In this document: positions 1 to 32,233 of the stretch, one piece after another
How positions within the stretch are numbered: position 1 is the first letter of the stretch
Layout: every line of letters starts with the position of its first letter
NCBI GenBank assembly: GCA_964644695.1
Contig: CAZXWN010000020.1
Coordinates: forward strand, 1 to 34,086
Direction: 5' to 3'
Origin: an uncultured bacterium
GTDB taxonomy: Bacteria > UBP4 > UBA4092
Length of the DNA: 34,086 bases
Notes under the pieces: generated by a model
What the model was told of the DNA's origin: nothing
What the model saw: only the letters and a program-made list of their open reading frames with translations
The model's database searches: none
Translations under genes and position numbers: made by a program

Positions 1-2225
1 GTGTTGGTGATGGAAAAGGAACTGAGACTAGAGGTGGAGTAACCAGCGGTCAATATAAGATGTATGAAGCCTCTCCCTACTGGGCCCAATACATGAAAGC
101 CCCGGCTTCTGTGTATAACTACTCTTCTGATAATGATGCTTCGGATGATGTGGGCTGCCGACCCTTATATGCTGAATGGGAAAATGAAAGTTGGGAGGAC
201 CCTGTATTTATCTCCTGGCACTCAAATGCGGCGGGAAGTGGTGCCACTGGAACGGAAACATACATCTGGAGCACTACCTATGCTTTTGGGCAGACGGCCT
301 CGTCTGATGGACCCGCTCCAACGGGTTCCTACAACCTGATGAATTATGTTCATACAAATGTGATCAATGACATTCGGAATGGGTATGATTCTTCATGGAC
401 CAACCGAGGTAAATTTCGGAATAATTACGGGGAATTACGACAGGTAACCAGTTTTCCTGCAATGCTGATTGAAATGGCTTTCCATGATAACGGAACCAAG
501 GATGCTCTTTATATGCAGGATCCTAAATTCCGTCAGATATTGGCCAGAGCCGTGTATAAAGGCATTGTCCAATATTATGCAAACAAAGGTGGGTTTACAG
601 CTGTTTACTTACCCGAACCGCCGACTAAACTCCGCGTTGTAAATACGGGAACGGGTAGTGTGACCCTGAGTTGGGCTGCCGGTGCCAGTGGCGGGATTTA
701 CGGTGGCGCTCCGACGGGATACCGGATTTACAAGGGAACCAATGGATATGGATTTGATAATGGAATTGCTGTCACGGGAACTTCCTATACGATGAGTGGG
801 TTGTCCGTTGATTCTGTATATTATTTCCGGATGACTGCCACCAACACGGGTGGTGAAAGTTTCCCCACCGCAACTCTGGCAGTCAGAGTTAAAAACGATG
901 GAACAGCTAATATCCTGGTGGTAAATGGATTTGATCGGGAAGACCGGTCCATCGTTCCGAATATTGTTTCTACCAGTTCTTATGATGGAAGTTCAAATGG
1001 TACCCCCAAGAACCCCATCCCCGACAAGACCAATGCATTCAACTATGTGGTCCAACATGCTCAGGCTATTTCTGCGGCAGTATCCGGTACAGGTACGAAG
1101 TATTACTTTGACTCTGTTGACCGGACGGCTGTAGAAGATGGCTCGATTAATCTTTCAAATTACTCACTCGTTATCTGGGCGGCAGGTAAGCAAGCCAAAG
1201 TAACCAGCAATGGACAGACTTCCAAAGAAGCTCTGACTGCGAATGAGCGGAGCCGAATTACTTCTTACCTAAGCGGTTCAAATAAAGGTTTCATGATTTC
1301 GGGTGCTGAAGTGGCTTATTGTCTTCACAGCCAGAGTAATGGAACCTTCCTCAATGGGACATTACATACCAATATCGAAGCAGATGATGCGAATTCCTAT
1401 ACTGTCACAGGTAAGACTGGAACGCTGTTTGATGGCTTAAGCTTTAACTTTGATAATGGGTCGGGAAATACTTACAATGTGTCCTATCCTGATTTAATCA
1501 GCCCTAATAGCAGCAATCAGGTGATGGATTATGATGTTGGCGGTGTTCAATTAGAAGCCTTCGACAGCCTTAACAATTGGAAGGATCCTAACTATTCGGG
1601 CTCATCAAATGCCGATGCGGCCAGTACGATTGATATAGTAACCAATCCTGCATATGAGGGCGCGGGCGCTGCTGATTTATACTATGTCTGGGGAACAGGT
1701 AATTTCATTCGTGAATACCAAACCAACAGTGCTTATAAAATCCCTGTTGCGGCCTCGGTCAGTATGTGGGTCTATGGTGACAATTCCAATAACAGCCTTC
1801 GGTTATGTGTCAAAGATACCACGGACACAGAACTATTTGTAAGTCCATATACGGTCGTGAATTTCACTGGCTGGCAGAAACTGACTTGGAACAACATCTC
1901 CAGCTGGACTCGGTGGTCAGGCTCTGGAAGTAATACCGTAGGTGATCCTGCTCCGTGGTTGGACAGTATCCAAATCAGTAAAACGGGAACCAGTGCCTCA
2001 GGTCATATCTATTTTGATGACATCACCTATTCAACAGGAGCGGCCTCGCTGACGGGTGCGGCGACTCTGTATAATGGGTCCTACAAACTGCTTTTCTTGG
2101 GATTCCCCTTTGAAACCATTACCTCTGAATCCAGTAGAAACAGTGTCATGCAGTCCGTTCTTCGTTACATGATATCGGGTACTACGGATGTCAGTGATTG
2201 GAAATATTTGAACTTGTTTGAATAA
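1..2225 (+). CDS. 5'-truncated multidomain N-acetylmuramoyl-L-alanine amidase-like protein (Amidase_3 C-half, FN3, alpha/beta domain with CBM-like insert); paralogue of 2444..5869
   Basis: The frame is open from base 3 (VGDGKGTETRGGVTSGQYK-MYEAS), matching an internal segment of the downstream paralogue, so ATG 60 is internal. Amidase motifs SWHSNA and IEMAFH. FN3 signature PEPPTKLRV..LSW..YRIY..YYFRMTATN. Confidence 0.85.
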   Translation, partial: VGDGKGTETRGGVTSGQYKMYEASPYWAQYMKAPASVYNYSSDNDASDDVGCRPLYAEWENESWEDPVFISWHSNAAGSGATGTETYIWSTTYAFGQTASSDGPAPTGSYNLMNYVHTNVINDIRNGYDSSWTNRGKFRNNYGELRQVTSFPAMLIEMAFHDNGTKDALYMQDPKFRQILARAVYKGIVQYYANKGGFTAVYLPEPPTKLRVVNTGTGSVTLSWAAGASGGIYGGAPTGYRIYKGTNGYGFDNGIAVTGTSYTMSGLSVDSVYYFRMTATNTGGESFPTATLAVRVKNDGTANILVVNGFDREDRSIVPNIVSTSSYDGSSNGTPKNPIPDKTNAFNYVVQHAQAISAAVSGTGTKYYFDSVDRTAVEDGSINLSNYSLVIWAAGKQAKVTSNGQTSKEALTANERSRITSYLSGSNKGFMISGAEVAYCLHSQSNGTFLNGTLHTNIEADDANSYTVTGKTGTLFDGLSFNFDNGSGNTYNVSYPDLISPNSSNQVMDYDVGGVQLEAFDSLNNWKDPNYSGSSNADAASTIDIVTNPAYEGAGAADLYYVWGTGNFIREYQTNSAYKIPVAASVSMWVYGDNSNNSLRLCVKDTTDTELFVSPYTVVNFTGWQKLTWNNISSWTRWSGSGSNTVGDPAPWLDSIQISKTGTSASGHIYFDDITYSTGAASLTGAATLYNGSYKLLFLGFPFETITSESSRNSVMQSVLRYMISGTTDVSDWKYLNLFE

Positions 2226-2240
2226 CGAATAGTTGTTATC

Positions 2241-2282
2241 AGCCTGCCGGTAAGATGATTTACCGGCAGGCTTTTTATTTTT
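2241..2282 (+). terminator. Rho-independent terminator
   Basis: AGCCTGCCGGTAA-gatgat-TTACCGGCAGGCT stem followed by TTTTATTTTT, 15 nt after the stop codon. Confidence 0.9.
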
Positions 2283-2339
2283 AATCAAAATCCGGTGGTA
2301 TTTTTCAATAAGAGATGATGTTGCAAAACTCTGAATAAC

Positions 2340-2368
2340 TTGCCAAATCACGAAACTTATTGTATAAA
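2340..2368 (+). promoter_or_regulatory. Putative sigma70-type promoter
   Basis: TTGCCA-17 bp-TATAAA upstream of ATG 2444, with a GAGGGG Shine-Dalgarno-like sequence before the ATG. Confidence 0.45.
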
Positions 2369-2443
2369 TATCCAAGTAAAAATGAGGATGTAACTGGATA
2401 TCCTCAGGGATGATTTATAAAACAAATAGTTGAGGGGTATGAA

Positions 2444-5400
2444 ATGCGTTTATTTTATCGGTATTTAATGGTGTGTAGTTTACTGATGACCGCAGTGTTG
2501 GCCCATGGTGTTACTTATGTTGTTGGAGGAAAGGGATATACACTGGAACGGAGCCAGCCGGCTTCGGCCCAAACAGAAGCTGATAAGGGTCTCTGGGTCA
2601 TTACAGAATTTTTGAAGGGGCCATCCGCTGAGGAAAAGGCGGCGGGCATCCAATCAGCAGTTCCTTCCGATATCCAAATCATCAAATCAGCGGTCAAGGG
2701 CGATGTATTGACTGTATATGTGAAAATGCCGGCTGATTATCTATCCAGTTTGAATGTTATCCAAACAGACGAGTTTTATGACAGTCTCGGAAAGTCATTA
2801 TTTGGGATCGTGACCAGTTATCAAGTAAGTGTTTTAGTATGGGATTCTGCAACGGGAACCTATAAGAAACTGACCGACTTCCTTCCACCTCTCCCCACGG
2901 TTGAACCCAAAGGAACTCAAAATGAAATCATCCCTGAACCCGTTGCTCCCGGAAAAGAGACCTATGGTCAATCCATCACTGATGTGGCACAGGCTGAATC
3001 CATTGCTTATTATGGACAAGGGCAGCCGACGGGACAGTTAGGTGGAAAGTCCATTTTTATCAGTCCTGGTCATGGTTGGTATTATGCCAGTGGGTCAGGG
3101 ACTTCATCCGTCTGGAACACTCAGCGCGGAAACAATTATGACATTGTGGAAGACCTTTCCAATGCGGAACATGTGAATTACTACTTGCTTCAATATTTAT
3201 GGAATGCGGGTGCAAACACCTATTCCTGCCGCGCCAGGAGTCATACAGATGACAGATACCAAGTGGATAACACAGATTCCGGGTATTCAGATAATGGGGG
3301 ATGGACTGACAGTGTATCCACCTCGCCTTATATTGGGACAAACTACCGGGTGATTCCTGCTGCCACCGTTTCTACTGCAACAGCGACCTGGCGACCAACA
3401 ATCACTAAATCGGACTACTATCCAGTCTATGTGTTTTATACCGGAGGAACGAATCGGGCAACAGCGGTAACTTATTATGTCGTTCATTCGGGTGGAACCA
3501 CCCAGTTTACACTCAATCAACAGAGAGATGGATATACCTGGAAATATATCGGGACCTACCACTTTAATGCCGGGACTCAAGGGTGTGTGTATGTGACAAA
3601 TCAGACTCCCAGCCCGACTGGAATGTATGTCATCGTGGATGCTATCTGTGTTGGTGATGGAAAAGGAACTGAAACCCGAGGTGGAGTAACCAGCGGTCAA
3701 TACAAGATGTATGAAGCCTCTCCCTACTGGGCTCAATACATGAAAGCCCCATCAACTATCTATGACAATTCAACAGACCCTGATAATACGGATGATATTG
3801 GATGCCGGCCTCTTTACTGTAACTGGGAGAAGGAATCCTGGGAAGACCCGGTATTTATTTCCTGGCATTCAAATGCGGCAGGCGGCGGAGCAACAGGAAC
3901 GGAAGCCTATATTTGGAGTGACACCTGGGCCTTTGGACAAACGGCAACCTCCGATGGTGTGGCTCCCACAGGTTCATACAACCTGATGAATTATGTCTAT
4001 ACAAATGTGATTAATGACATTCGGAATGGGTATGATTCTTCATGGACCAGCCGGGGCAAATTTAGGAATAATTATGGGGAACTCCGACCTATCACCGATT
4101 ACCCTGCCTTGATTATTGAAATGGCCTTCCATGATAACGGGACCAAGGATGCTCTTTATATGCAGGATCCTAAATTCCGTCAGATATTGGCCCGTTCCGT
4201 ATATAAGGGAATTGTCCAATACTATGCAAACAAAGGTGGGTTTACGGCTGTTTACTTACCCGAACCGCCGACTAAACTCCGTGTTGTGAATACGGGGACG
4301 GGTAGTGTGACCCTGAGTTGGGCTGCCGGTGCCAGTGGCGGCATCTACGGTGGCGCTCCGACGGGATACCGGATTTACAAGGGAACCAATGGATATGGAT
4401 TTGATAATGGAATTGCTGTCACGGGAACTTCCTATACGATGAGTGGGTTGTCCGTTGATTCTGTATATTATTTCCGGATGACTGCCACCAACACGGGTGG
4501 TGAAAGTTTCCCCACTGCGACCCTTGCCGTAAAAATTCGTAATAATGGAACCGCCAATATTCTTATCGTGAATGGTTTTGACCGGGAAGACCGGTCGATC
4601 GTTCCCAATATTACTTCTACCAGTTCTTATGATGGAAGTTCAAATGGTACCCCCAAGAATCCTATTCCGGACAAGACCAATGCGTTCAATTATGTTGTTC
4701 AGCATGCCAAAGCTATTGCTTCTGCTTCCTCTGGTGAGGGGCTGAAATATTATTTCGATTCAGCAGATAGAACTGCGGTAGAAGATGGCTCGATTACCCT
4801 TTCAAACTATACTGTCGTTATCTGGGCGGCAGGTAAACAGGCCAAAGTAACCAGCAATAGCCAGACTTCCAAGGAAGCTCTGACTGCGAATGAGCGAAGT
4901 CGAATCACCACTTTTTTAAGTGGCGCTGGAAAAGGTCTTGTGATTTCGGGTGCTGAAGTGGCTTATTGTCTTCACAGCCAGGGTAATGGAACCTTTCTCA
5001 ATGGGACATTGCATGCGAATATCGAGGCTGATGATGCCGGCTCATATACGGTAGTCGGGAAAAGCGGTTCAGTATTTGACGGAATTAGCTTCAATATTGA
5101 TAATGGGTCGGGGAGTACTTACGATGTGCCCTATCCTGATTTAATCAGCCCTAATAGCAGTACTCAGGTGATGGATTATGACATTGGTGGGACTCAGTTG
5201 GAGACCTTCGATAGTCTCAACAGTTGGAAGGATCCTAACTATTCGGGTTCATCGAATGCCGATGCCGCCAGCACCATTGGAATAGTATCCAGTCCTCTGC
5301 ATCAGGGGTCGGGTGCCGCCGATTTATACTATGTCTGGGGGACAGGGAATTTCATCCGTGAATACCAGTCCAACAGTGCTTATAAAATCCCTGTTGCCGC

Positions 5401-5869
5401 CACAATCAGTATGTGGGTCTATGGTGATAACTCCAATAACAGTCTTCGATTATGTGTCAGAGATACAACGGATTCCGAACTATTTGTAAGTCCATATACA
5501 GTCGTGAATTTTAGCGGGTGGCAGAAACTGACCTGGAGCGATATGACGGGTTGGAGCCGATGGTCTGGGTCGGCTAGTAGTACGATAGGTGATCCTGCTC
5601 CGTGGCTGGACAGCATCCAAATCAGTAAAACGGGAACCAATGCCTCAGGTCATATCTATTTCGACGATATCACCTATTCAACAGGAGCGGCCTCGCTGAC
5701 GGGTGCGGCGACTCTGTATAATGGGTCCTACAAACTGCTTTTCTTGGGATTCCCCTTTGAAACCATTACCTCTGAGTCCAGCAGAAACAGTGTCATGCAA
5801 TCGGTATTACGGCTTATGATACCCGAATCTGCTGTTCCGGTGGAGTTATCGGGGTTTGATACGGAATAG
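2444..5869 (+). CDS. Secreted multidomain amidase-like protein: signal peptide, N-terminal domain, split Amidase_3 with golvesin/Xly-CBD-like insert, FN3, alpha/beta domain with CBM-like insert
   Basis: Signal peptide MRLFYRYLMVCSLLMTAVLAHG. Zn-amidase residues IFISPGHG, IVEDL, SWHSNA, IEMAFH. Golvesin-like segment ATWRP..YPVYV..NRAT..H..G..NQQ..W.YIGTY.F..VDAI. FN3 domain. CBM-like segment MWVYGD..VNFSGWQKL..GHIYFDDI. Confidence 0.85.
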   Translation: MRLFYRYLMVCSLLMTAVLAHGVTYVVGGKGYTLERSQPASAQTEADKGLWVITEFLKGPSAEEKAAGIQSAVPSDIQIIKSAVKGDVLTVYVKMPADYLSSLNVIQTDEFYDSLGKSLFGIVTSYQVSVLVWDSATGTYKKLTDFLPPLPTVEPKGTQNEIIPEPVAPGKETYGQSITDVAQAESIAYYGQGQPTGQLGGKSIFISPGHGWYYASGSGTSSVWNTQRGNNYDIVEDLSNAEHVNYYLLQYLWNAGANTYSCRARSHTDDRYQVDNTDSGYSDNGGWTDSVSTSPYIGTNYRVIPAATVSTATATWRPTITKSDYYPVYVFYTGGTNRATAVTYYVVHSGGTTQFTLNQQRDGYTWKYIGTYHFNAGTQGCVYVTNQTPSPTGMYVIVDAICVGDGKGTETRGGVTSGQYKMYEASPYWAQYMKAPSTIYDNSTDPDNTDDIGCRPLYCNWEKESWEDPVFISWHSNAAGGGATGTEAYIWSDTWAFGQTATSDGVAPTGSYNLMNYVYTNVINDIRNGYDSSWTSRGKFRNNYGELRPITDYPALIIEMAFHDNGTKDALYMQDPKFRQILARSVYKGIVQYYANKGGFTAVYLPEPPTKLRVVNTGTGSVTLSWAAGASGGIYGGAPTGYRIYKGTNGYGFDNGIAVTGTSYTMSGLSVDSVYYFRMTATNTGGESFPTATLAVKIRNNGTANILIVNGFDREDRSIVPNITSTSSYDGSSNGTPKNPIPDKTNAFNYVVQHAKAIASASSGEGLKYYFDSADRTAVEDGSITLSNYTVVIWAAGKQAKVTSNSQTSKEALTANERSRITTFLSGAGKGLVISGAEVAYCLHSQGNGTFLNGTLHANIEADDAGSYTVVGKSGSVFDGISFNIDNGSGSTYDVPYPDLISPNSSTQVMDYDIGGTQLETFDSLNSWKDPNYSGSSNADAASTIGIVSSPLHQGSGAADLYYVWGTGNFIREYQSNSAYKIPVAATISMWVYGDNSNNSLRLCVRDTTDSELFVSPYTVVNFSGWQKLTWSDMTGWSRWSGSASSTIGDPAPWLDSIQISKTGTNASGHIYFDDITYSTGAASLTGAATLYNGSYKLLFLGFPFETITSESSRNSVMQSVLRLMIPESAVPVELSGFDTE

Positions 5870-5898
5870 ATAGATATCCTTCATTAGATTTATTCTTC

Positions 5899-5936
5899 AG
5901 CCTGCCTGGATAACCATCATCCTGGCAGGCTTTTTA
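5899..5936 (+). terminator. Rho-independent terminator related to the one at 2241
   Basis: AGCCTGCC..GGCAGGCT stem plus T-run; the outer stem is the same as at 2241. Confidence 0.85.
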
Positions 5937-6298: not shown

Positions 6299-7009
6299 TT
6301 AATTGAAGAACCGATACCAAATCAAAATCGCCAGGGCATTGATACCATCATACCAATGTATTTTCTTGCCCTCATCAAATTCTCGTCCGGCATAGGAAAT
6401 GGGGACTTCGTAAATACGAATCCCCTGTTTGAGAATCTTGGAAGTGACTTCCGGTTCAAATCCAAACCGGTCACACCGAAGTTTCATTCCCTTGAGGAGG
6501 TCTGCCTTAATGATTTTGTAACACGTTTCCATATCCGAGAGAGTTGAGTTATAGAGGATATTGGTTATGAGGGTCAGGAACCTGTTTCCTATCCAGTGAT
6601 AGAACAACATGTTTCGGTGTTCACCCGTGAATCGGGAACCATACACAACTGTGGCCCATCCTTTTTGAATGGGTCGAAGCAGTTTCAGGTAGTCTTCCGG
6701 GTCATACTCCAAATCAGCATCCTGAATGAGAATATATTCACCCGTTGCCGCCTGTATTCCGGTTCGGATAGCAGCGCCCTTACCCTTATTCACCTCATGG
6801 TAAAGGATCTGGTCCACCTCTCCGGATAAAGTTTTAAGAATATCCCGAGTTCCATCGGTGGAACCGTCATCGACGATGACAATTTCCTTATCCAGAGGAA
6901 CGGCTTTTACCAGTTCAATGATTTGACGGAGGGTTTTCTCCTCGTTGTACACCGGAACGATCACGGTGATCCGTGGGACCGGCAGGTTGGACTTCATAGT
7001 GCTCGACAA
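6299..7009 (-). CDS. GT2 glycosyltransferase, DPM/DPG-synthase-like
   Basis: VIVPVYNE, VDDGSTDGT, NKGKGAA, IQDADLEYDP, DMETCYK, FGFEPEVT. The start may be ATG 6997. Confidence 0.92.
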   Translation of the reverse strand: MSSTMKSNLPVPRITVIVPVYNEEKTLRQIIELVKAVPLDKEIVIVDDGSTDGTRDILKTLSGEVDQILYHEVNKGKGAAIRTGIQAATGEYILIQDADLEYDPEDYLKLLRPIQKGWATVVYGSRFTGEHRNMLFYHWIGNRFLTLITNILYNSTLSDMETCYKIIKADLLKGMKLRCDRFGFEPEVTSKILKQGIRIYEVPISYAGREFDEGKKIHWYDGINALAILIWYRFFN

Positions 7010-10000
7010 GGTTCTGCTCCAGTTTGGCTTTTTTCCGCTCCATATAGAGTGTATTCATTCTAAAGGTAAACAGGCAAACTAACAAGATGAAAGAGATAAC
7101 TGACAGGGTGGCTCCGGTTATAAATCCCGGGGGTAAATAAGTAAATGTTATCCGATGCGGCCCTACGGGGAGATAGATGGCTCGTAATCCCCCATTAGCC
7201 CTGTAGATCGGTGTTGATTTGCCATCAACGACAGCTTTCCACCCGGAAGCATAGGTCTCGCTTAATACGAGAAATCCACGGGCCGCCACGATGACTTTTA
7301 AGTCAATCTTGTTGGGTGAATACCGGGTAATCGTAACCTTTTCATTGGAAGTATCCACTTCCATCCATTTGCTGGACCCTTCTTCCCGGTCCACTTTCTC
7401 GATTCGGTCAAACCGATAGACCTGGGGAATTGAATAGGGAACCTGTAACTGGGCATACTGTTGCCCTTGAGACACCATGGCTTGTCCGGGCTTGGCTCCG
7501 GTAAGACCGAGGATACACCATGCCGTTTGTCCGGAAAATTGTTGACTGGACCCCAGATGACGCAGGCATTGCCAAAGGGTATCTGTGAATGCTGTCTGAA
7601 CCATTCCTGATGCCGTTATACCAACAATTTTTCCCGTATCCAGCGACATCAGGTACTGTTCAAAATCAGTGATGGATTCCGGTTTATGGAGCACATCAAA
7701 ATACTTCTGGTCTTCCTGTTCCCCTGTCTCTGGATTCAAGACAATGAGATGGACCCCTGGTGAATGGGTTCCGATGGCGATATCTTGATTTTCAGATGAG
7801 GCCGTATCTACTGTATCTTCCGCTTCAGGTAATGTATCCAGCAGGTCTGTCCCATCCAATATAAACTGGACTTTGGGGGCTGTGTCCCGGGCATCACTGA
7901 TAATCTGAATCGATCTGTTAGCAGGAAGTTTAATATCAGTCTTACCCAAAAAGTTACTTCTTTTCTCCGTCAATTTACCTACATTTTCATGGAGAATGAG
8001 GGTGTTCTGGGGATTAAAAAAGTCCTGTCGCATCCATTGTGCGGCCAGATTATTACTTTGAGTTACCAACGCACGGTGTGTCATCCAGGCCCTGGGTTGG
8101 ACATTGGTTGCTTCATAAACAAATAATCCATTGCTGGAAACAAGTCTGGAATTTTTCAGTTCTAACGGAGAGTCAGAAATGAAGTATTTGATATTCATCA
8201 TATCCGTAAATGAATTGATTTCCGGATTGAGGGCCGCATAATGCCAGTTGTCGTTATAAGGGGGCCTTTGAGGTTTCCCATTATTGGCTAAATCTACCAT
8301 CATCCTGTAATTCTTCAGGTACATGGGATTATATCCCTGCGCATCCTGGAGTTGATACACCATTGCAGTATTGGACAGGAGTTTTTGTGTGGCTGCTGGA
8401 GGATTAAATGTAGGTTCAGGCAATTGGGACGATTCGATACTGCAATATCGATACAAACTACTGTCACGGGAAAGGAAATTCACCAAGTCATATTCAGGAT
8501 ATTGGATTGAAGCCTTTTGTCCAGCCAGTAACCGATTATAATCCGGAGTGGGTTGCCATAATTCTGTCAGAGTGATTGTTGCTATGGCGATAACGATTAA
8601 CCAGGGATGAAACATTCGGCCCGGACATAAAACAATGAGCAGGATGACCAGTATCCCGGGTATCAGTTTCCAGGTCTGATTTTGTAATCCTACGCTGTTC
8701 AGCAGTAAAAATATGGCCAGAAGGATACCTGTAAGTTTCCAAATGTTGAGGGGGATGACATCCAGTTCAAATTTCCAGTTTAATAATTTATCCAGCGCCA
8801 GCCCCGCAATGATGGATATGGCCAGCGTATAAATAACAATATACCGGTGAGTCACAAAGAAGGTCTTAAATCCGGGAATGTGTCTGAAAACATTCTGAGT
8901 ACAGTAGGGTTCAAGAAATACCAGGCTTAGAGAAAAAAGAATCAATGCCCAGAATACTCTTGAAACAGGATTGTTTTCGGTTGATGTTTTGGGAAGAACG
9001 AAAGACAGGATTATCAACAGGAGGGGAATAGTCCCGATATACCCACTGATGACAGGATCCCCCATTCCTCCACCCAAAAACAAGTCCTGCAACACATTTT
9101 TGAACTGAAGGGATAAATTGATGATTCGGAAATATCCGAAATCATTTAGGCCTGCTCTCAAAGTCTCCTGCTGGAATAATAATGAAGGGTACAGTTGAAC
9201 GGCAGCAAGTCCCAATCCCAGCAATGAAGCCAGGAGTAAGATGATAAGCGATATTAAAGGTTGGGGCTGGATCTCAATAGACTGGTACCGGATAAAAAGA
9301 ATATATCCGAAAAGAAGGACCCCAATTCCTGTGGTAATCATTCCAATGACCCAGGACGAAATGAATCCCGGGAAGTTCCATGAAGCCAGTGTTGTTGTGA
9401 TTCCCGCAATAAAGAAGGTGATAAGAATATTTCCAATGACTCGATGTCCGACATTGATTTGTGTTTTGGGTGTCAGAATAAATATCTCGCCGGCGATTCG
9501 GATGAGCAAATAAATGCAACCCGTTAGGAGAGTTAGATATATCCCCTGTGGATATCCACAAAGCAGTAACAAAGTCAGACAGATTGAGGAGATGATGAGA
9601 GAGCCGATCGTTCGTTTCTGGATTGTTCTTTCAATGGCAAACAGCGTCAGTGGCAAAAAGGGAAGGGAATAGAATATGCTTGTTACAAGGACCTTGGTAA
9701 CGCTGTATTGTCCCAGCATGTAACACATACCTGCCAGAATTGATGCCGGTCGGGATAAGGATAATCTGCGGGAAAAAAGATAGGTAAACCAGCCTGCCAT
9801 AAAAAAATGAATCAGAAGGTTAATGGGAAATCCCCAGTTTGCAGGAATAAAGGCGGCGCTCAGCAGGAGAGGTAAATGCGTGGCGGCTGATTGTGGGTCA
9901 CTGAAGAAAGGTGTCCCCGAAAATGAATAAGGATTCCAGAAAGGGAAGCCGCCCTGGTGTAGTTGCTGAGACAGAAAATGAAAGTTTGGATAAGTGAAAA

Positions 10001-10187
10001 GGGTGATATCTCCACCTGTTGGAAAACGGCCTTCCAATGCCATGTCTGGGAAGAATATTACAGGTAATCCCAGAAACAGAATGAACACACATAACTCTCT
10101 AACCCATCCGGGGAGTTTGATTCCTCGAATCCAATGTAATTTCCCGGTTTGGGAACGGTGGATTTCAGGTGTGGTTTGTGGGGTCAT
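6915..10187 (-). CDS. YfhO-family membrane glycosyltransferase-like protein with ILEI-like insert
   Basis: Multi-TM N-terminal half with GGD..YP..G.FPFWNPYSFSGTPF and LAAVQLYP. YfhO-type C-terminus FLVLSETYASGWKAVVDGK..IYRANGGLRAIYLPVGPHRITFTYLP followed by a TM helix. Confidence 0.85.
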   Translation of the reverse strand: MTPQTTPEIHRSQTGKLHWIRGIKLPGWVRELCVFILFLGLPVIFFPDMALEGRFPTGGDITLFTYPNFHFLSQQLHQGGFPFWNPYSFSGTPFFSDPQSAATHLPLLLSAAFIPANWGFPINLLIHFFMAGWFTYLFSRRLSLSRPASILAGMCYMLGQYSVTKVLVTSIFYSLPFLPLTLFAIERTIQKRTIGSLIISSICLTLLLLCGYPQGIYLTLLTGCIYLLIRIAGEIFILTPKTQINVGHRVIGNILITFFIAGITTTLASWNFPGFISSWVIGMITTGIGVLLFGYILFIRYQSIEIQPQPLISLIILLLASLLGLGLAAVQLYPSLLFQQETLRAGLNDFGYFRIINLSLQFKNVLQDLFLGGGMGDPVISGYIGTIPLLLIILSFVLPKTSTENNPVSRVFWALILFSLSLVFLEPYCTQNVFRHIPGFKTFFVTHRYIVIYTLAISIIAGLALDKLLNWKFELDVIPLNIWKLTGILLAIFLLLNSVGLQNQTWKLIPGILVILLIVLCPGRMFHPWLIVIAIATITLTELWQPTPDYNRLLAGQKASIQYPEYDLVNFLSRDSSLYRYCSIESSQLPEPTFNPPAATQKLLSNTAMVYQLQDAQGYNPMYLKNYRMMVDLANNGKPQRPPYNDNWHYAALNPEINSFTDMMNIKYFISDSPLELKNSRLVSSNGLFVYEATNVQPRAWMTHRALVTQSNNLAAQWMRQDFFNPQNTLILHENVGKLTEKRSNFLGKTDIKLPANRSIQIISDARDTAPKVQFILDGTDLLDTLPEAEDTVDTASSENQDIAIGTHSPGVHLIVLNPETGEQEDQKYFDVLHKPESITDFEQYLMSLDTGKIVGITASGMVQTAFTDTLWQCLRHLGSSQQFSGQTAWCILGLTGAKPGQAMVSQGQQYAQLQVPYSIPQVYRFDRIEKVDREEGSSKWMEVDTSNEKVTITRYSPNKIDLKVIVAARGFLVLSETYASGWKAVVDGKSTPIYRANGGLRAIYLPVGPHRITFTYLPPGFITGATLSVISFILLVCLFTFRMNTLYMERKKAKLEQNLVEHYEVQPAGPTDHRDRSGVQRGENPPSNH

Positions 10188-22494: not shown

Positions 22495-24003
22495 CTAACG
22501 CATCCCCTCATCTCCGGCAACCGGTGCTTTTTTAGAAAAAATTCTTGAGTATAAGTATCCGGAAGAGACGGCTAAACCCATCAGATAAATCAAAAATCCC
22601 AATTTTAGTCCGATAGAGACAGGCGTTTTCCATAGTTGATAGTAAAATAAGTCCGCTGTTTTGTCTGTTAAGATTGCCCAGTGTCCGGCTAATGGTGACC
22701 GAACAGGAATATACAGTATTTCATGTAAGGGGCCAACAGACTGATAGTAGAAATGGTAATCCATAAAACTGACCAGAAGTGCTGGTATCTGGATATAGAG
22801 ACTGCCCAAGGCCAATAGCCCTACGGGAATCCAGAAAAACATATTAAACCGTTTATCCTGTTGTTTGAGGAGAGCCAGCACCGGAATAATCAAGAAGGCA
22901 TGAATTTGATAAATATGCCGAGGACCCCAGGTCCAACCACCCGCCCATGATTCCCATTTGGAGTAAAACAAGACATAGGAAAGAATAATGAGTATACATA
23001 AGAGGGCCTGTTGTTTATGCTCCTGCCAGAAATGTTTAATAGCCGGGAAAAATAGAAGCACGAGAGGAGAGTAAATCACTACTCCTCGACCAGAACTAAG
23101 AAGTAAACCGTAAAGTCCGTCCCACATGGAAAAGCTGAAAGTCAATCCTTCTGACTCATAACCAGTATAGGTCGGCGATCCAAACCTGATAAAGTTATAC
23201 AGGGCAACCAGAAGACCGGCAATAATCAGGGGTATCCCAGAAGCCAACGCATTACTCCAGAAATTTTTCCATTTTGATTTATCTGATGGAGCTGTCAAAA
23301 CGGGATACAAAAGGTAAAGGATGAAAGATGGAATCAGGATGATGGTATCCACCCGGGTGAGTAATGCGGCACCCACCCAACATCCTGCAATCATAAGATG
23401 TTTGCGAAGATTTGAATTTTGGAATCGACAGAGGTGATAAAACGCCAGAAGAAGAAATAGTGTGACTGTCGGCTCAGAATAAAAGGTTTTGGAAAAGGGG
23501 AAAGCCATCGTCCCCAGACCATAGAATAGACTGATGAGAAATCCATTTTTGGAAGAGTAACCTAATTGCAGGGCAATCAAGAAAACCATCACACAGGCCA
23601 GCGCCGTTGTAACTTGTCCCATGCGTGAGACAAAATACCGATTCCAGTATTCCTGTGGAGTGTGCCCGTGGTAAGCAATGGCGGTGGAGGGACGGAAGGC
23701 ATACAGTCCCTGGTCAGGGAAAAAAGGAGATATTATCTGACCTGCACCCCAGAAGGGAAGTGCCCAGAGGGATTGACCGATACCATAATGTCCATAGAAC
23801 CGGCCTTGTGGATCTTTATCAGTAAACCGGTCTCCCTCATCCTCTAAAGGTTGAATAGACAGGGTGTGCGATTTTCCGAGAGATTCTGTCGTGCGATACA
23901 TAATCTCTTCATCAGGTGAATACAGGTGACCGGACATGAATAAGCTGTAGATACTGAAGAAGAAAATAAAAAGGAATAAGGCGGTTTTAAGATTTGACCG
24001 CAT
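22495..24003 (-). CDS. GT-C-fold membrane glycosyltransferase (PMT/ArnT-like)
   Basis: About 11-13 hydrophobic segments, SPDEE acidic motif after TM1, FYSE, YNFIRFG, WAGGWTWGPR. Flanked by GT2 genes. Confidence 0.75.
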   Translation of the reverse strand: MRSNLKTALFLFIFFFSIYSLFMSGHLYSPDEEIMYRTTESLGKSHTLSIQPLEDEGDRFTDKDPQGRFYGHYGIGQSLWALPFWGAGQIISPFFPDQGLYAFRPSTAIAYHGHTPQEYWNRYFVSRMGQVTTALACVMVFLIALQLGYSSKNGFLISLFYGLGTMAFPFSKTFYSEPTVTLFLLLAFYHLCRFQNSNLRKHLMIAGCWVGAALLTRVDTIILIPSFILYLLYPVLTAPSDKSKWKNFWSNALASGIPLIIAGLLVALYNFIRFGSPTYTGYESEGLTFSFSMWDGLYGLLLSSGRGVVIYSPLVLLFFPAIKHFWQEHKQQALLCILIILSYVLFYSKWESWAGGWTWGPRHIYQIHAFLIIPVLALLKQQDKRFNMFFWIPVGLLALGSLYIQIPALLVSFMDYHFYYQSVGPLHEILYIPVRSPLAGHWAILTDKTADLFYYQLWKTPVSIGLKLGFLIYLMGLAVSSGYLYSRIFSKKAPVAGDEGMR

Positions 24004-26491: not shown

Positions 26492-27418
26492 ATGATGAAG
26501 AAGATTTTGTGCACAGTAACTTTTATTGTCTTGGCGATATATTCAACGCTGGCGATGAGTTCTCAAAACTCTGCCGGGGTGGGGATGGAAATCAGCCAAC
26601 AGGATAATCATTTTGTCGTGACGGGTATGATTGACGATGGTCCAGCTCAAGAAGCTGGAATCCAAACCGGTGATGTAATTTATCAGGTCAATGGCGAACC
26701 TGTAGATAACCTGACTCTGGAGGAAGTTGTATCGAAAATTAAAGGGGAATCGGGTACGAATGTAAGTATAGTTCTTCATCGTGGAAGCGATGAACAATCA
26801 CAACAGGAACTTACTATATCCGTGAATCGTCAGTACGTATTTTCTCCTACGAATACTCCCTTAATCAAGACAAATCCTCCCACGAATAGTATTCAAAAAT
26901 CACAGGCTTTACCCTCTGTGAATAATAGTATAAATTCAATTCTTTATTTTGTTCCCCTCAGTGCCAAGGTTACTGAAGGTATGGACTTCCCCCTGAATAT
27001 TTACCTGAACAATCCCAAAGGTGTCATGTGCGATGAATTGTGTTTGTTTATAAAATATGACCCGAAAGCTCTTCAACTCCAATTATCAGGTCCTGGATTA
27101 TGGATTGAACTTAATCCAAAACTATTTGCACACTGGAAGATTGAAACAATAAGTTATGACTCTACTCTGGGTGAATTATCTCTGAAAGCTCATAATCGAA
27201 AGCCGGATATTCCTCTCTCTGGCGCAATAGGTACAATGTTATTTACAGCAGGTGGGAAAGTTCCTTACTCACAGGTCAGTTTTGAATTCAGAGAGGTGTC
27301 TCAGGGGATATCCACTCGTGTTCAATCAAAAGGTAAGGATATCTTAGGATTGGAATCAGAATCTAAAGATGGAGTTATCAGCGCTTCTGTGCGAATTGTG
27401 AGTCAATCCCAAAAGTAA
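26492..27418 (+). CDS. Secreted PDZ-domain protein with C-terminal cohesin/Ig-like beta domain
   Basis: Signal peptide. CtpA-type PDZ (GVGMEI..GPAQEAGIQTGDVIYQVNG..IKGESGTNVSI). P/T/N/S-rich linker. Beta domain with IKYDPKAL and G.IGTMLF.A. Confidence 0.8.
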   Translation: MMKKILCTVTFIVLAIYSTLAMSSQNSAGVGMEISQQDNHFVVTGMIDDGPAQEAGIQTGDVIYQVNGEPVDNLTLEEVVSKIKGESGTNVSIVLHRGSDEQSQQELTISVNRQYVFSPTNTPLIKTNPPTNSIQKSQALPSVNNSINSILYFVPLSAKVTEGMDFPLNIYLNNPKGVMCDELCLFIKYDPKALQLQLSGPGLWIELNPKLFAHWKIETISYDSTLGELSLKAHNRKPDIPLSGAIGTMLFTAGGKVPYSQVSFEFREVSQGISTRVQSKGKDILGLESESKDGVISASVRIVSQSQK

Positions 27419-29074: not shown

Positions 29075-32000
29075 TTATTTTGCAATAAGTCCCATTGGGA
29101 GCCCACCATTTTGTGTTGGGACATTCTTATATCGCTGAGCCAAAGCCTGATACTGGGCCGCCTTAGCCCCATCTCTGACAATAGTGCCGTAATAATAGGC
29201 CAGATTTGCATAGGCAGGGTAGAAAGATGGATTCATCTGAATAACCTTTTCCCACATGAACACGGCATCGGAGGTTCTGCCCAACCAGAAGTAAGCTTCA
29301 CCTAAATTCTGGTATGCCATGTAATTCTGCGGCATACCGCGAAGGGCAGTTTCGATGTTGTTGGATGCTTTGGTAACAAGTTCGACATGCTTCTGAGCCT
29401 CATCAGCGGTTAGCTGACTAATATCCCGACCCTTGCGTAATTTTGCAGCCAATTCCATCTGAAGAGCCCCTAAAAGGTAATAGGCGCCGGCATCATTCGC
29501 ATCCTGATCATAATAATAGAGGGATACACCTTTTTCGAGGAGTTTGACGGCCTCTTCGGTTTTACCAAAGTTAGTTCTGTACATATCAGCCAACATAAAG
29601 TAGGAAAGAGCTTTTCGAGGCTGCGTTTCGATTGCTTTTAAGAACTCTGTTGTTGCCTTATCAAGAATGCCTTCATTCCGCCAGATATTTGCCAGGTTGA
29701 TGTGCATGTTATCAAGGTCCCAGCCAGTTTCTGAGGTTTTGTCAAAATGCAGATAGGCTTTCTTTTTGAGTTCTTCTCGTTTCACAGGGTCAACAGCTTG
29801 CGTGTACTGCTGGTAGTAGGCTCGGCCAATCAGGAAGTGGTAGTTGGATACCAGCTCTCGAGTATAGTAGTCAGTGCCCATTTCATAGAAGAATTTATCG
29901 AGTGTGGTCAACTGTTCCAAAGTGCTTTCATAATCAGGTTCTTTTTCACCAGGCCGGACCGCTTGATACACAATCCCGGAAGGTAATTGCTTGACCTGTG
30001 GGAATCCAGGAAAATCCTGATACCGTGTGGGGTCGTCTGGCGGCGGAGTATTACTCTGCACACTCATATAGTAAACAGGTGTATTGGAGGTCATTGTAAT
30101 CTTAGCTCTTCCAATATCTTTCAACCGGTTATGCGTCATAGGATCAATTCTGAATTTGTCTTTACCAAAATCAAAAATGGGGACAAACAGGTTTTCCCCT
30201 TCATCATAAATCTGAGTGGGGGGGAACTTGTTTTCCACATAAGAGAGGTAACCCAAAGCAAACGTCGGATTATCTCCAATGATGAATATCTTTCCATCCT
30301 TAGGAATGGATTTTAAAATGTTCATTCCAAAGTAGTACGCCACATCATTTTTTGACAAGTTCTGATGCCAGTAATTTGAAGCAAGGGGGACAAACGGCAT
30401 GAGAACCATTGCACCACAGAGTGCATAATGTAATGGATATGTAGCGGGTTTGCTCAGCTGAGCTGCGACAGTATCAGCCCCTTCTGGGAGTGCATTTACG
30501 GGCTGAGCATTGCGGTAATACTTATTCATATCTTCTTCGCTGATATCGGGTACCGGCGGAAGGCCTGTTAACTTGAACCCGTATTTCAGCCATTCCATAA
30601 TTTGTTGGGCACCAAAGGCAATCCAGATAGCCGCAATCATGTAACTGGGAATGAGGAATCGGGCAATAATATACATGGAGTGGTTGGTAGTCTGATAATT
30701 CAAGACAGCCTGCATTCCCGGCCCATAAATCAAGAAGGCCATCAGGGTCAACACGAAATACTTACCGTTTTGGCGGAATAGACGCCAAATACCCAACAGC
30801 ATCATGGAGAACCATGCAGCCGTCCATAATCCGACAAGAACCATATGTCCCTGTGAAGGCCAACCTTCAATGGGCTTATATTGATGGTTAAAGTGGTCGA
30901 GGGTTGGATCACTGTAATGAGTTTTGTAAGAACCAAACTGCCGGAAGAAATAAATCCAGTATTCGGCAAACTGTTCTTTCACGATATCCAGTGGTCCAAA
31001 GATGGCCTTATCTTTCAAGAATTCGGGGAAAACTCGAGGTATCGGGGACAACGGACCATACTGCCGACGAGAAATATGATTGTATAAATCTTCGGTGGTT
31101 TGGATGTAACCCCAGCTCATTGCCGGAACGCTCTTTTCCTGTGTCAATACAGTGTTGGCACGGCGTTGTTCATCCGTAATATTGTTTAAAGGATTGTTTG
31201 CCAAGCGCATGGGAATATACAGATACATGCACATACCCAGGATAAACAGTAAGGTTGCATAAATCCATGTTTTATCCCGTTTGTGCCACCAATGCAGAGC
31301 CAGAGTATAGGGCACAAAGGTCAGAATCGTCAGGGTGAATTTGGTCAGGAATGTATCTTGGGGAGGAAGGGGCTGATTGATAACTAATAGTGAAATCAAA
31401 TTCGCCAGTCTTTCGGCCAGGACATACAGTATCAATCCAACAAATCCATAGATGAACAGATAGATAATCTCCCATTTTACATTCCACTTTTTAAACAGCG
31501 AGCAAACGATGAAATAGGAGTAGAGAAGCGGCATTACTAAAAACAGGTTGTGGTGGGCCATCGCCATTGCGGTGACAAAGAATAATGCCAGGAAGTATCG
31601 CTGCTCATGATTTTCACTCCACAGAAGCATCAACAACATGGTGACAACGGTGAAGAAAACATTCAGGATGAATACTTCAGAGAACAATGCCTGAGACCAG
31701 AAGTGGTAACAGAAGGCGAACATCAGGGAACCACTCAGAGCAACCGTTCGGTAATGTGACAGCTTTAACAGTAATACATAGAGGAAATAGGTGGTTGCAC
31801 CGGCTACTAAGGCGCACAGGAAAGCCCCTCGAGCCGCAGGGTGTTCGAAAAAGCCAAATAAAGTTACAGCACATTTGACCATCATGATCCACATGGGATA
31901 ACCCGGAGGGTGGGCTATACCTAAAACGGCGCCCTGGGCTGAGAACTCGCCTGAATCACCCACATACAAGGTTCGGCAGAGTGTCATTGTATAAATAATC

Positions 32001-32233
32001 AGAGGTAACAGAAATGCCGGAAGACCCCATAGCCAGTCTGCGGAATATAACTTTCTCAGAGGCAATGCTTTGTGGACTTTCTCCGGAGTCTCTCCTGTTT
32101 GTAACTCCCGGATGGCAGCTTCGACGTCTTTTACCGGGCTTTTCAAATTTTTAGCAATGTCCTGTGCAGACATTTTCTCTCTATTATCTGCAATGTAGCG
32201 GCGTTGCTCTTTGTTGAATTTCTTGTTCGACAT
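29075..32233 (-). CDS. DUF2723 / TMEM260-like membrane glycosyltransferase with C-terminal TPR repeats
   Basis: GDSGEF..LGIAHPPGYP, FWSQALFSEV, AHH, YLYIPMR, SWG..HISRRQYG, GDN..F.LGY. TPR-like helices such as AYQNLGEAYFWLGR..A..WEKVIQMNP..AYANLA. Confidence 0.88.
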   Translation of the reverse strand: MSNKKFNKEQRRYIADNREKMSAQDIAKNLKSPVKDVEAAIRELQTGETPEKVHKALPLRKLYSADWLWGLPAFLLPLIIYTMTLCRTLYVGDSGEFSAQGAVLGIAHPPGYPMWIMMVKCAVTLFGFFEHPAARGAFLCALVAGATTYFLYVLLLKLSHYRTVALSGSLMFAFCYHFWSQALFSEVFILNVFFTVVTMLLMLLWSENHEQRYFLALFFVTAMAMAHHNLFLVMPLLYSYFIVCSLFKKWNVKWEIIYLFIYGFVGLILYVLAERLANLISLLVINQPLPPQDTFLTKFTLTILTFVPYTLALHWWHKRDKTWIYATLLFILGMCMYLYIPMRLANNPLNNITDEQRRANTVLTQEKSVPAMSWGYIQTTEDLYNHISRRQYGPLSPIPRVFPEFLKDKAIFGPLDIVKEQFAEYWIYFFRQFGSYKTHYSDPTLDHFNHQYKPIEGWPSQGHMVLVGLWTAAWFSMMLLGIWRLFRQNGKYFVLTLMAFLIYGPGMQAVLNYQTTNHSMYIIARFLIPSYMIAAIWIAFGAQQIMEWLKYGFKLTGLPPVPDISEEDMNKYYRNAQPVNALPEGADTVAAQLSKPATYPLHYALCGAMVLMPFVPLASNYWHQNLSKNDVAYYFGMNILKSIPKDGKIFIIGDNPTFALGYLSYVENKFPPTQIYDEGENLFVPIFDFGKDKFRIDPMTHNRLKDIGRAKITMTSNTPVYYMSVQSNTPPPDDPTRYQDFPGFPQVKQLPSGIVYQAVRPGEKEPDYESTLEQLTTLDKFFYEMGTDYYTRELVSNYHFLIGRAYYQQYTQAVDPVKREELKKKAYLHFDKTSETGWDLDNMHINLANIWRNEGILDKATTEFLKAIETQPRKALSYFMLADMYRTNFGKTEEAVKLLEKGVSLYYYDQDANDAGAYYLLGALQMELAAKLRKGRDISQLTADEAQKHVELVTKASNNIETALRGMPQNYMAYQNLGEAYFWLGRTSDAVFMWEKVIQMNPSFYPAYANLAYYYGTIVRDGAKAAQYQALAQRYKNVPTQNGGLPMGLIAK

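Follow-up and report, generated by a model that had tools for sequence, protein, structure and literature searches.

Two classes of short C-terminal tag on predicted exported enzymes of an uncultured UBP4 bacterium, one of them possibly read by strand complementation

Why would two tandem genes for the same predicted exported enzyme align without a gap and then end in two unrelated short tails? The question is raised by a stretch of 34,086 nucleotides, here called the window, from an uncultured bacterium of the lineage UBP4 (UBA4092; contig CAZXWN010000020.1 of assembly GCA_964644695.1); it is the entire contig C20 of a 3.07-Mb, 28-contig genome (G000). The pair, genes A and B, is predicted to encode N-acetylmuramoyl-L-alanine amidases of the secreted, cell-wall type. 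The comparisons described here give good support to the view that each of the two tails works as a C-terminal tag on exported proteins, and we infer that they direct export or anchoring.

Within the window, gene A, for a secreted amidase-family protein, is present as its 3' 740 codons (3..2225, forward strand). It is not truncated in the genome: contig C6, which overlaps the start of the window by 51 bases, ends with the 419 codons that come first in the gene and include the signal peptide (C6:111891-113147). Gene B (2444..5869, forward strand, stop at 5867-5869) encodes 1141 amino acids. A first-pass annotation had described near-identical paralogues, colinear without indels up to ..SVMQSVLR and then diverging into two unrelated tails; the coordinates and peptides are as it gave them, and the alignment is indeed gapless (632/724 identities, 0 gaps), with the identity itself more modest, at 87% for protein and 84.5% for DNA (1828/2163). 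The alignment ends at R[YL]MI, and divergence is confined to the last 18–19 residues. Gene A terminates in ..SVMQSVLR-YMISGTTDVSDWKYLNLFE (tail with stop at 2166..2225, forward strand; stop at 2223-2225), a class-2-like tag whose core V-S-D-W starts at 2190. Gene B terminates in ..SVMQSVLR-LMIPESAVPVELSGFDTE (tail with stop at 5813..5869, forward strand), a class 1 tag whose core PVELSGFDTE plus stop occupies 5837-5869. Past the shared ..SVMQSVLR[Y/L]MI, gene A thus continues as SGTTDVSDWKYLNLFE and gene B as PESAVPVELSGFDTE.

Both tails recur at the ends of unrelated proteins in the same genome. We called 2,465 open reading frames (ORFs) in G000, of which 2,455 have a stop; these calls are crude, and both they and the signal-peptide calls rest on heuristics, the latter on one of our own. 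Class 1 was defined as P[VLI][ESTG][LVI]..F followed by 1–6 residues (canonically PVELSxFxxE-COOH) and class 2 as V.[DN]W..[YMFL] followed by 0–5 residues. The string PVEL lies within the last 30 amino acids of 19 of the 2,455 ORFs, against about 1.2 expected, and P[VLI]E[LVI]..F has no match outside the last 30 residues of any G000 ORF. Class 1 terminates 18 ORFs, 17 of them with signal-peptide-like starts; class 2 terminates 11, of which nine are signal-peptide-like, the other two being gene A, whose N-terminus lies on C6, and a cytoplasmic-looking false positive. A stricter class 2 core gives about ten C-terminal matches and one internal match. In all, signal-peptide-like N-termini are found on 26 of the 29 tail-bearing ORFs versus 616 of the 2,426 others (Fisher p 8e-13). 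The carriers are unrelated to one another: endonuclease I, two GHL10 proteins, a polysaccharide deacetylase, an SBBP propeller, DUF4434, GH20, an M1 peptidase, NAGPA, a 2039-aa S8 subtilase, BNR proteins and several proteins without a family. The enrichment among signal-peptide proteins that the first-pass annotation had anticipated is therefore present, on unrelated bodies and specifically at the C-terminus.

Carrier proteins end three (rarely up to 17) residues after the class 1 F, or 3–7 residues after the class 2 W. The final residue is E in class 1, and Y, F, E or K in class 2 of G000. An exact free C-terminus is not required, because some tags carry residues beyond the core. One such protein in G000 (C23:4593-6500) ends in a class 1 variant plus four residues (..PVDVSEFQVEDSIQ) and has as its immediate downstream neighbour a class 2 protein of 167 aa (C23:6558-7061, ..TPVTDWALYE), a second spot where the two classes are neighbours. 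Further candidate C-terminal motifs on signal-peptide proteins of G000 are ..T[SA]AP[LM]A[ST]EL[FM][ED] and ..TSAPLFEE..NLYE, carried at C24:10839-12350, C24:12689-15001, C6:74797-75849, C11:41631-42683 and C22:12099-12941, some of these proteins being mutually paralogous. A C-terminal k-mer scan also returned the recurrent ends ..NLFDTKEVETELVP, ..DDPYFGD.. and ..ALRYE, which we rejected as portable tags; they belong to paralogous families in which whole C-terminal regions are alike.

The tail of gene B is predicted to be a free, linear and unstructured extension and not part of a domain. In the AlphaFold2 (AF2) model of the protein (mean predicted local distance difference test, pLDDT, 81) the last helix spans residues 1111-1125, coil begins at residue 1126, and pLDDT falls below 50 for residues 1135-1141. 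A domain scan of gene B left the tail outside every Pfam and NCBIfam match, and PF18962 and TIGR04183, which describe the type A C-terminal domain (CTD) of type IX secretion systems (T9SS), have no match at the C-terminus.

How far do the two classes extend beyond this genome? The collection searched holds five UBP4 species (G000–G004). DNA patterns undercount variant tags, and kin genomes are not independent. A strict class 1 DNA pattern (PVEL[ST..]xFxxE-stop) is found 11 times in G000, 16 in G001, once in G002, twice in G004 and not at all in G003; it has no match in 36 genomes of other phyla, and its reversed control has none either. Across 185,579 species genomes, VPVEL..F..E-stop gives 65 matches at 61 loci, 54 of which terminate open frames of at least 100 amino acids, mostly with signal peptides; the remaining 11 matches fall in short frames or in frames truncated where a locus or contig ends, or are not stops. 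The range of class 1 takes in UBP4, many metagenome-assembled genomes (MAGs) of Sumerlaeota, Hydrogenedentota, Acidobacteriota (Thermoanaerobaculia, Vicinamibacteria and Holophagae), Xanthomonadales (Lysobacteraceae and Dokdonella) and one Planctomycetaceae record, and with the Ser position freed there are 20 matches in one Vicinamibacteria MAG. Two unrelated MAGs, L012 (Paceibacterota) and L024 ('uncultured bacterium'), have in common a short frame ending ..HVPVEFR[EQ]FVKE, a chance pattern match. In a sample of 401 genomes from about 270 families, real class 1 matches occur only in the five UBP4 genomes and in G469 (eight matches); two further singletons look like chance. A looser P-x-E-x-x-x-F scan finds PVELS[RQ]F in excess over control in G003 and G004, and none in the Sumerlaeota genomes G034 and G433 (also handled as G101 and G111), which carry the variant PVxLSxFxxE in two and seven matches.

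Class 2 ranges over UBP4 and Sumerlaeota. The pattern V-x-[DN]-W-x-[LIM]-[YF]-stop has seven matches in Sumerlaeota G041 and none in the class-1-bearing genomes G042–G045. It is present in 52 of 75 Sumerlaeota genomes, at up to 30 per genome, with controls at two or fewer. Conversely, G048, G058, G059 and G064 have class 1 and at most one class 2 match. Because each class is found in genomes without the other, we regard the two as independent, and the status of class 2 as a second tag in its own right is well supported by this phyletic pattern. The statement of the first-pass annotation that both tails recur on secreted Sumerlaeota proteins is confirmed, and its division of the tails into two classes stands, separated phyletically in both directions; a role in export or anchoring keeps the standing given to it above.

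What, then, might read class 1? The first-pass annotation had pointed out that PVEL-x-x-F opens a C-terminal immunoglobulin-like module in T9SS cargo, and this is borne out: of 81 places in metagenome contigs that match PVELT[ST]FTA, 74 mark the start of a module about 100 amino acids long, for which there is itself no Pfam or NCBIfam model, and a T9SS type A CTD (PF18962/TIGR04183) follows the module in all three examples scanned. We built a profile of 99 positions from the 74 modules that carry the motif in cis and searched it against the G000 ORFs. There was one strong match (E 4e-17), covering positions 14-85 only, to a 166-aa lipoprotein with a ..FTTGC lipobox (G000 C2:119450-119950). The class 1 tag corresponds to module positions 1-10 (P1-V2-E3-L4-x-x-F7 of the consensus), and the lipoprotein starts directly past the A–B turn of the module, that is, without the first strand. 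Single-copy lipoprotein or secreted orthologues that start at positions 12-17 are found in G001–G003, G041–G045, G120 and G469, with alignments running from 12-17 to 85-93; the alignment of the G003 protein starts at position 5, but across a low-complexity linker. What precedes the module in the orthologues is a lipobox or signal peptide together with a linker rich in Pro, Ser, Thr and Ala; no strand is conserved there.

The AF2 model of the lipoprotein module (pLDDT 90) has six strands, and its best structural matches are fibronectin type III (Fn3) domains (Z 7–9). Single-domain Fn3 chains align only from about residue 17–18, with most of the linker outside the AF2 construct; this start is consistent with a missing strand A in the modelled lipoprotein, although it is suggestive only. 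Co-folding of the lipoprotein module (amino acids 50-165) with the last 42 amino acids of gene B gave a score of 0.00; folded without alignments or controls, it provides no evidence either way.

We lean toward a reading in which each tail serves as a short address tag at the C-terminus of Sec-exported enzymes and class 1 is read by strand complementation. The class 1 tag would supply the missing strand in trans, by donor-strand complementation, to the Fn3-like lipoprotein, and about 18 exoenzymes would thereby be docked on the lipoprotein at the cell envelope. Once docked, a protein may be cleaved or transferred by a peptidase of family C25 resembling PorU, in the way PorU itself acts in the T9SS; docking plus the C25 step would run without the T9SS translocon. 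Class 2 would be a second, independent tag, and the tandem amidases, keeping one tail each, would have one enzyme addressed in two ways. Docking on the lipoprotein is favoured because sequence complementarity, phyletic pattern and partial gene linkage all point to it.

The phyletic pattern was obtained with profile A3, the truncated module, run over the same 401 genomes. Only seven of them reach 130 bits or more (G000–G003, G469, G034 and G433); the next tier, at 108 bits or less, consists of genomes with many modules, mostly in frames of several hundred residues or more. Among 75 Sumerlaeota genomes, the small protein is present in 13 of 15 with at least three plausible tags versus 20 of 58 others, a contrast from which two genomes with two real-looking tags each were excluded. 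The linkage involves Peptidase_C25 (PF01364, E 1e-73 to 1e-82), which adjoins the lipoprotein gene in G043, G045 and G469; the best NCBIfam match of these adjacent peptidases is PorU (NF033707), below its cut-off. In G043 the genes lie on one strand in the order cargo, C25, lipoprotein, a 475-aa gene and cargo. The C25 orthologue of G000 (741 aa, C4:49912-52137) matches PF01364 at E 1e-84 (285 bits against a cut-off of 23) and NF033707 at 260 bits against a cut-off of 420, over model positions 8-736 of 1095. It lies in a locus of polysaccharide type, with sugar-nucleotide, Wzz-like and transferase genes. In the second UBP4 family, the PorU-like C25 is found as two tandem copies (G003 C56:42105-46985; G004 C20:3826-8763).

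Several findings weigh against this proposal. With the strict pattern, the Sumerlaeota contrast becomes 8/10 versus 35/65, which is not significant, and the kinship of the genomes makes Fisher values overstate the association. We found no lipoprotein in three tag-bearing genomes (G004, which is 95% complete, G048 and G064), and about 20 Sumerlaeota genomes have the lipoprotein but at most two detectable tags. C25 adjoins the lipoprotein gene in only 3 of the 13 lipoprotein loci examined; across the 401 genomes C25 is present in 121 (E<=1e-30), with no score gap that would mark a dedicated subfamily. C25 co-occurrence is unusable as evidence, and the link therefore rests on adjacency at those three loci. 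On the structural side, the AF2 construct starts eight residues before strand B, and the linker may hold a divergent first strand of its own, such as NIAIFAG in G000, which is not conserved in the orthologues. Some tags run on past the core: family f2 of G003 and G004 has 4–7 residues beyond it (..PVELSQFELSAIK), and one G000 protein has 17 residues after the F. No match to T9SS CTD (PF18962) or SprA (TIGR04189) was obtained in the five UBP4 genomes, but control genomes were equally silent, so that absence of a T9SS does not follow from these searches. For class 2, no cis counterpart was found among 80 T9SS-type loci.

The same peptidase offers the rival account that survives best, although we consider it rather unlikely: the class 1 tail would be a minimal recognition and cleavage signal for C25, a shrunken CTD, and the lipoprotein would have another role, for example as substrate or scaffold, with no strand complementation. 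It draws on the presence of a PorU-like C25 in G000–G004 and G469 and on its position next to cargo in G043; tags with residues past the core suit a cleavage site better than an end-specific dock, and a polysaccharide locus, where the G000 enzyme lies, is what glycan transfer would lead one to expect. It leaves unexplained, however, why the tag should equal module positions 1-10 while the co-occurring lipoprotein starts at 12-17, and C25 is widespread in tagless genomes, its 121 of 401 standing against 6 of 401 with real tags.

Lower still in our estimation, and improbable, is an account in which the tails are linear targeting signals for a secretin system resembling the type II secretion system (T2SS), or for a C-terminus-reading protein or protease of the PDZ type. 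Four secretins are encoded in G000; among their clusters are a canonical T2SS and two atypical PilM–secretin clusters, one of which lies 1 kb from a class 1 cargo gene. The genome also encodes PDZ proteins, seven in number, and the window holds the gene of one that is secreted (26492..27418); pseudopilin genes stand near cargo genes in six loci, and class 2 ends are hydrophobic or aromatic, like PDZ ligands. Against this, class 1 ends in Glu, and pseudopilins are so highly multi-copy in these phyla that their neighbourhood is weak evidence. A neighbour search around 61 class 1 loci returned only these pseudopilins (six loci) and sigma factors (three loci), and both were dropped as leads to the machinery. 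The secreted PDZ protein was likewise dropped as a reader of the tags, since its full length is conserved only in G001 and not in tag-bearing genomes of other phyla. As to the systems themselves, the secretin set of G000 (C5:110-11471, C12:28745-35292, C12:47282-51787 and C9:85777-90768) comprises a canonical T2SS, PilMNOPQ and two atypical clusters of PilM-like proteins plus secretin, one secretin being 1419 aa long. The window PDZ protein (forward strand) is a secreted protein of 308 aa. Its PDZ domain is N-terminal, and a C-terminal stretch of some 180 aa belongs to no family; that stretch alone has weak matches in G001 and Sumerlaeota G041.

The weakest account, in which the tails are functionless relics of an Fn3 module and CTD after loss of a T9SS, has in its favour that the class 1 core is identical to the opening of the module which T9SS cargo carries in cis, and that no T9SS CTD or SprA was detected in the five UBP4 genomes (a search in which the controls were silent too), but it is very improbable, as random cut sites would be expected and yet 54 unrelated proteins of several phyla stop at F-x-x-E, the motif is never internal and has been kept in the tandem pair across genera and through gene conversion, and class 2 has no cis precursor.

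The history of the pair itself returns us to the reading of the tails as address tags. In G001, from a sister genus, the same tandem arrangement lies behind the same membrane-protein gene. The first gene of the G001 pair encodes 1154 aa and ends ..MVPVELTSFDAE / ..FMVPNPMVPVELTSFDAE; the second encodes 970 aa and ends ..TDVVDWSLF (..YLISTDVVDWSLF), and a third paralogue comes next. Tail B aligns with the tail of the 1154-aa protein, and tail A is homologous to that of the 970-aa protein. Because both tails align across genera, the two-tail state predates the split between the genera of G000 and G001. The first-pass annotation had proposed that a duplication sends one enzyme down two routes; the two tails, one on each paralogue, remain, but the duplication is not a fresh one.

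The A and B bodies are mosaics, with identities from 63% to 100% in 150-base windows; the final tract, about 96% identical, stops exactly at the tail, and identity returns at the terminator stems. These hairpin terminators (gene A, 2240..2276; gene B, 5898..5935; both forward strand) have the same stem, which is found at two places in the whole G000 genome, both behind the stops of A and B. By this pattern, gene conversion has homogenised the two bodies around tails that stayed different. Codon differences between A and B number 174 synonymous and 91 non-synonymous, and amidase orthologues elsewhere have the same body with one tail class or the other (for example ..PLPVSLSEFITE and ..AVGDWSIY). 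We count the conserved pair, the gene-conversion pattern and the codon differences as pointing to selection on tail identity, in favour of the address-tag reading. On the opposite side, tail A is an outlier within class 2, with L at W+3 and four extra residues, where G001 has the canonical ..DWSLF.

The third amidase paralogue of the G001 array belongs to a family of 1100–1500 aa that ends ..D[VI]DFLRD.DDPYFGD.., with members at G000 C19:11315-22141, C7:79585-83580 and C9:78407-81640 and at G001 L073:832-5424; that end belongs to a shared domain and is no portable tag. Gene B itself begins with a signal-peptide-like N-terminus, MRLFYRYLMVCSLLMTAVLAHG (2444..2509, forward strand; a heuristic call, with AF2 pLDDT below 50 for residues 1-17), followed by Golvesin_C (amino acids 274-401), Amidase_3 (PF01520; 465-591, at 33.1 bits against a gathering cut-off of 27), fn3 (608-694) and a FlaA-like beta domain (983-1077). 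Its closest named homologues are proteins of Candidatus Sumerlaeota, at 46–48% identity.

Elsewhere in the window there are three large membrane proteins of glycosyltransferase GT-C type, all on the reverse strand: YfhO with an ILEI domain (6915..10187), PMT_2 (22495..24003) and a TMEM260-like protein with TPR repeats (29075..32233). In G044 and G469, PMT_2-like genes are also neighbours of the gene for the strand-deficient lipoprotein, which may hint at a tie to envelope glycosylation.

Among known systems, the closest likeness is to the T9SS. As with its type A CTD cargo, the enzymes are predicted to leave through Sec and to bear their signal at the C-terminus; class 1 matches the opening strand of the Fn3-like module found immediately before the CTD in that cargo, and there is a C25 peptidase of the PorU family, in some genomes linked. 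Unlike the CTD, which is a folded domain of 70–100 aa, the signal here has about ten residues, with the rest of the module on a separate lipoprotein; and unlike PorU, the G000 enzyme, besides scoring 260 bits against the PorU cut-off of 420, is without the last ~350 positions of the PorU model. According to the abstract of PMC4560394, T9SS substrates lose their CTD by cleavage at the cell surface and are extensively glycosylated afterwards; its title speaks of a sortase-like mechanism.

Both tails also resemble LPXTG/sortase, PEP-CTERM/exosortase, GlyGly-CTERM/rhombosortase, PGF-CTERM and MYXO-CTERM in that a short motif ends many unrelated secreted proteins of one genome, with a patchy distribution across phyla. 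Tripartite signals, as described in 10.1101/2023.06.07.544157, consist of a motif, a transmembrane helix and an Arg-rich cluster, their readers are embedded in or anchored to the membrane, and for PEP-CTERM, links to polysaccharide loci are described there too. Both of our tails, in contrast, end 0–7 residues past the motif, often in Glu, with no hydrophobic or membrane-spanning segment, and neither class has an Arg/Lys-rich cluster at the extreme C-terminus.

Two further comparisons concern how the tags could be recognised. In chaperone–usher pili, an immunoglobulin-like fold that lacks an edge strand is completed by a strand of another polypeptide, and fibres are built from pilins in this way. 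Unlike in those pili, many enzymes would here dock on one lipoprotein through a C-terminal tag, as judged from sequence. N-terminal strand swapping in an Fn3 scaffold is named in the title of PDB entry 4m6a. With respect to class 2, whose ends are often aromatic, there is a likeness to PDZ ligands and to the beta-signal of outer-membrane proteins. In the periplasm, PDZ proteases (DegS, Prc/CtpA) recognise short peptides at the C-termini of exported proteins, and the beta-signal is the peptide recognised in outer-membrane proteins. Class 1, however, ends in Glu, and neither motif has the alternating aromatic pattern; judged by the conservation of the window PDZ protein, no tie of the tails to a particular PDZ protein was found.

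Nor was a reader for class 2 found, and nine of the 36 Sumerlaeota genomes with at least four class 2 matches have no match to the lipoprotein (G046, G067, G085, G088, G089, G093, G096, G097 and G107). In the open-access literature searched, we found no description of either tag.

Taken together, the elements can be assembled into a wider picture, which we offer tentatively and hold less firmly, as a joint whole, than the address-tag reading itself. 'Split-domain addressing' would operate in at least five phyla, with a ten-residue strand tag completing a strand-deficient Fn3 lipoprotein in trans. A PorU-like peptidase would act on the assembled domain, and the whole would be a sorting principle not known from any secretion or anchoring system. 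An unrelated tag, ..V-x-D-W-x-L-Y-COOH, on up to 30 proteins per Sumerlaeota genome, would have machinery of its own, none of which was found here. Where tandem paralogues have exchanged tags, nature would already have run the experiment that shows the tags to be portable and distinct in function.

To our knowledge, the bacterial sorting signals described so far include no short linear C-terminal tag that lacks a membrane anchor. This analysis contributes a second class of tag, which Sumerlaeota use widely, the evidence that the classes are separate, and a conserved amidase pair, shaped by apparent gene conversion, with one tag on each member. The pair in the window is a ready swap system, the same enzyme with two tags, and the tags provide a cheap means of secretome prediction for uncultured lineages. 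Together they mark much of the predicted exoenzyme set in UBP4, Sumerlaeota, Acidobacteriota and Hydrogenedentota, phyla that are poorly known and widespread. If class 1 does act by strand complementation, it would constitute a natural tag-and-catcher pair, connect the way in which T9SS attachment arose with a simpler system and explain how degradative enzymes are retained at the surface of bacteria without a T9SS.

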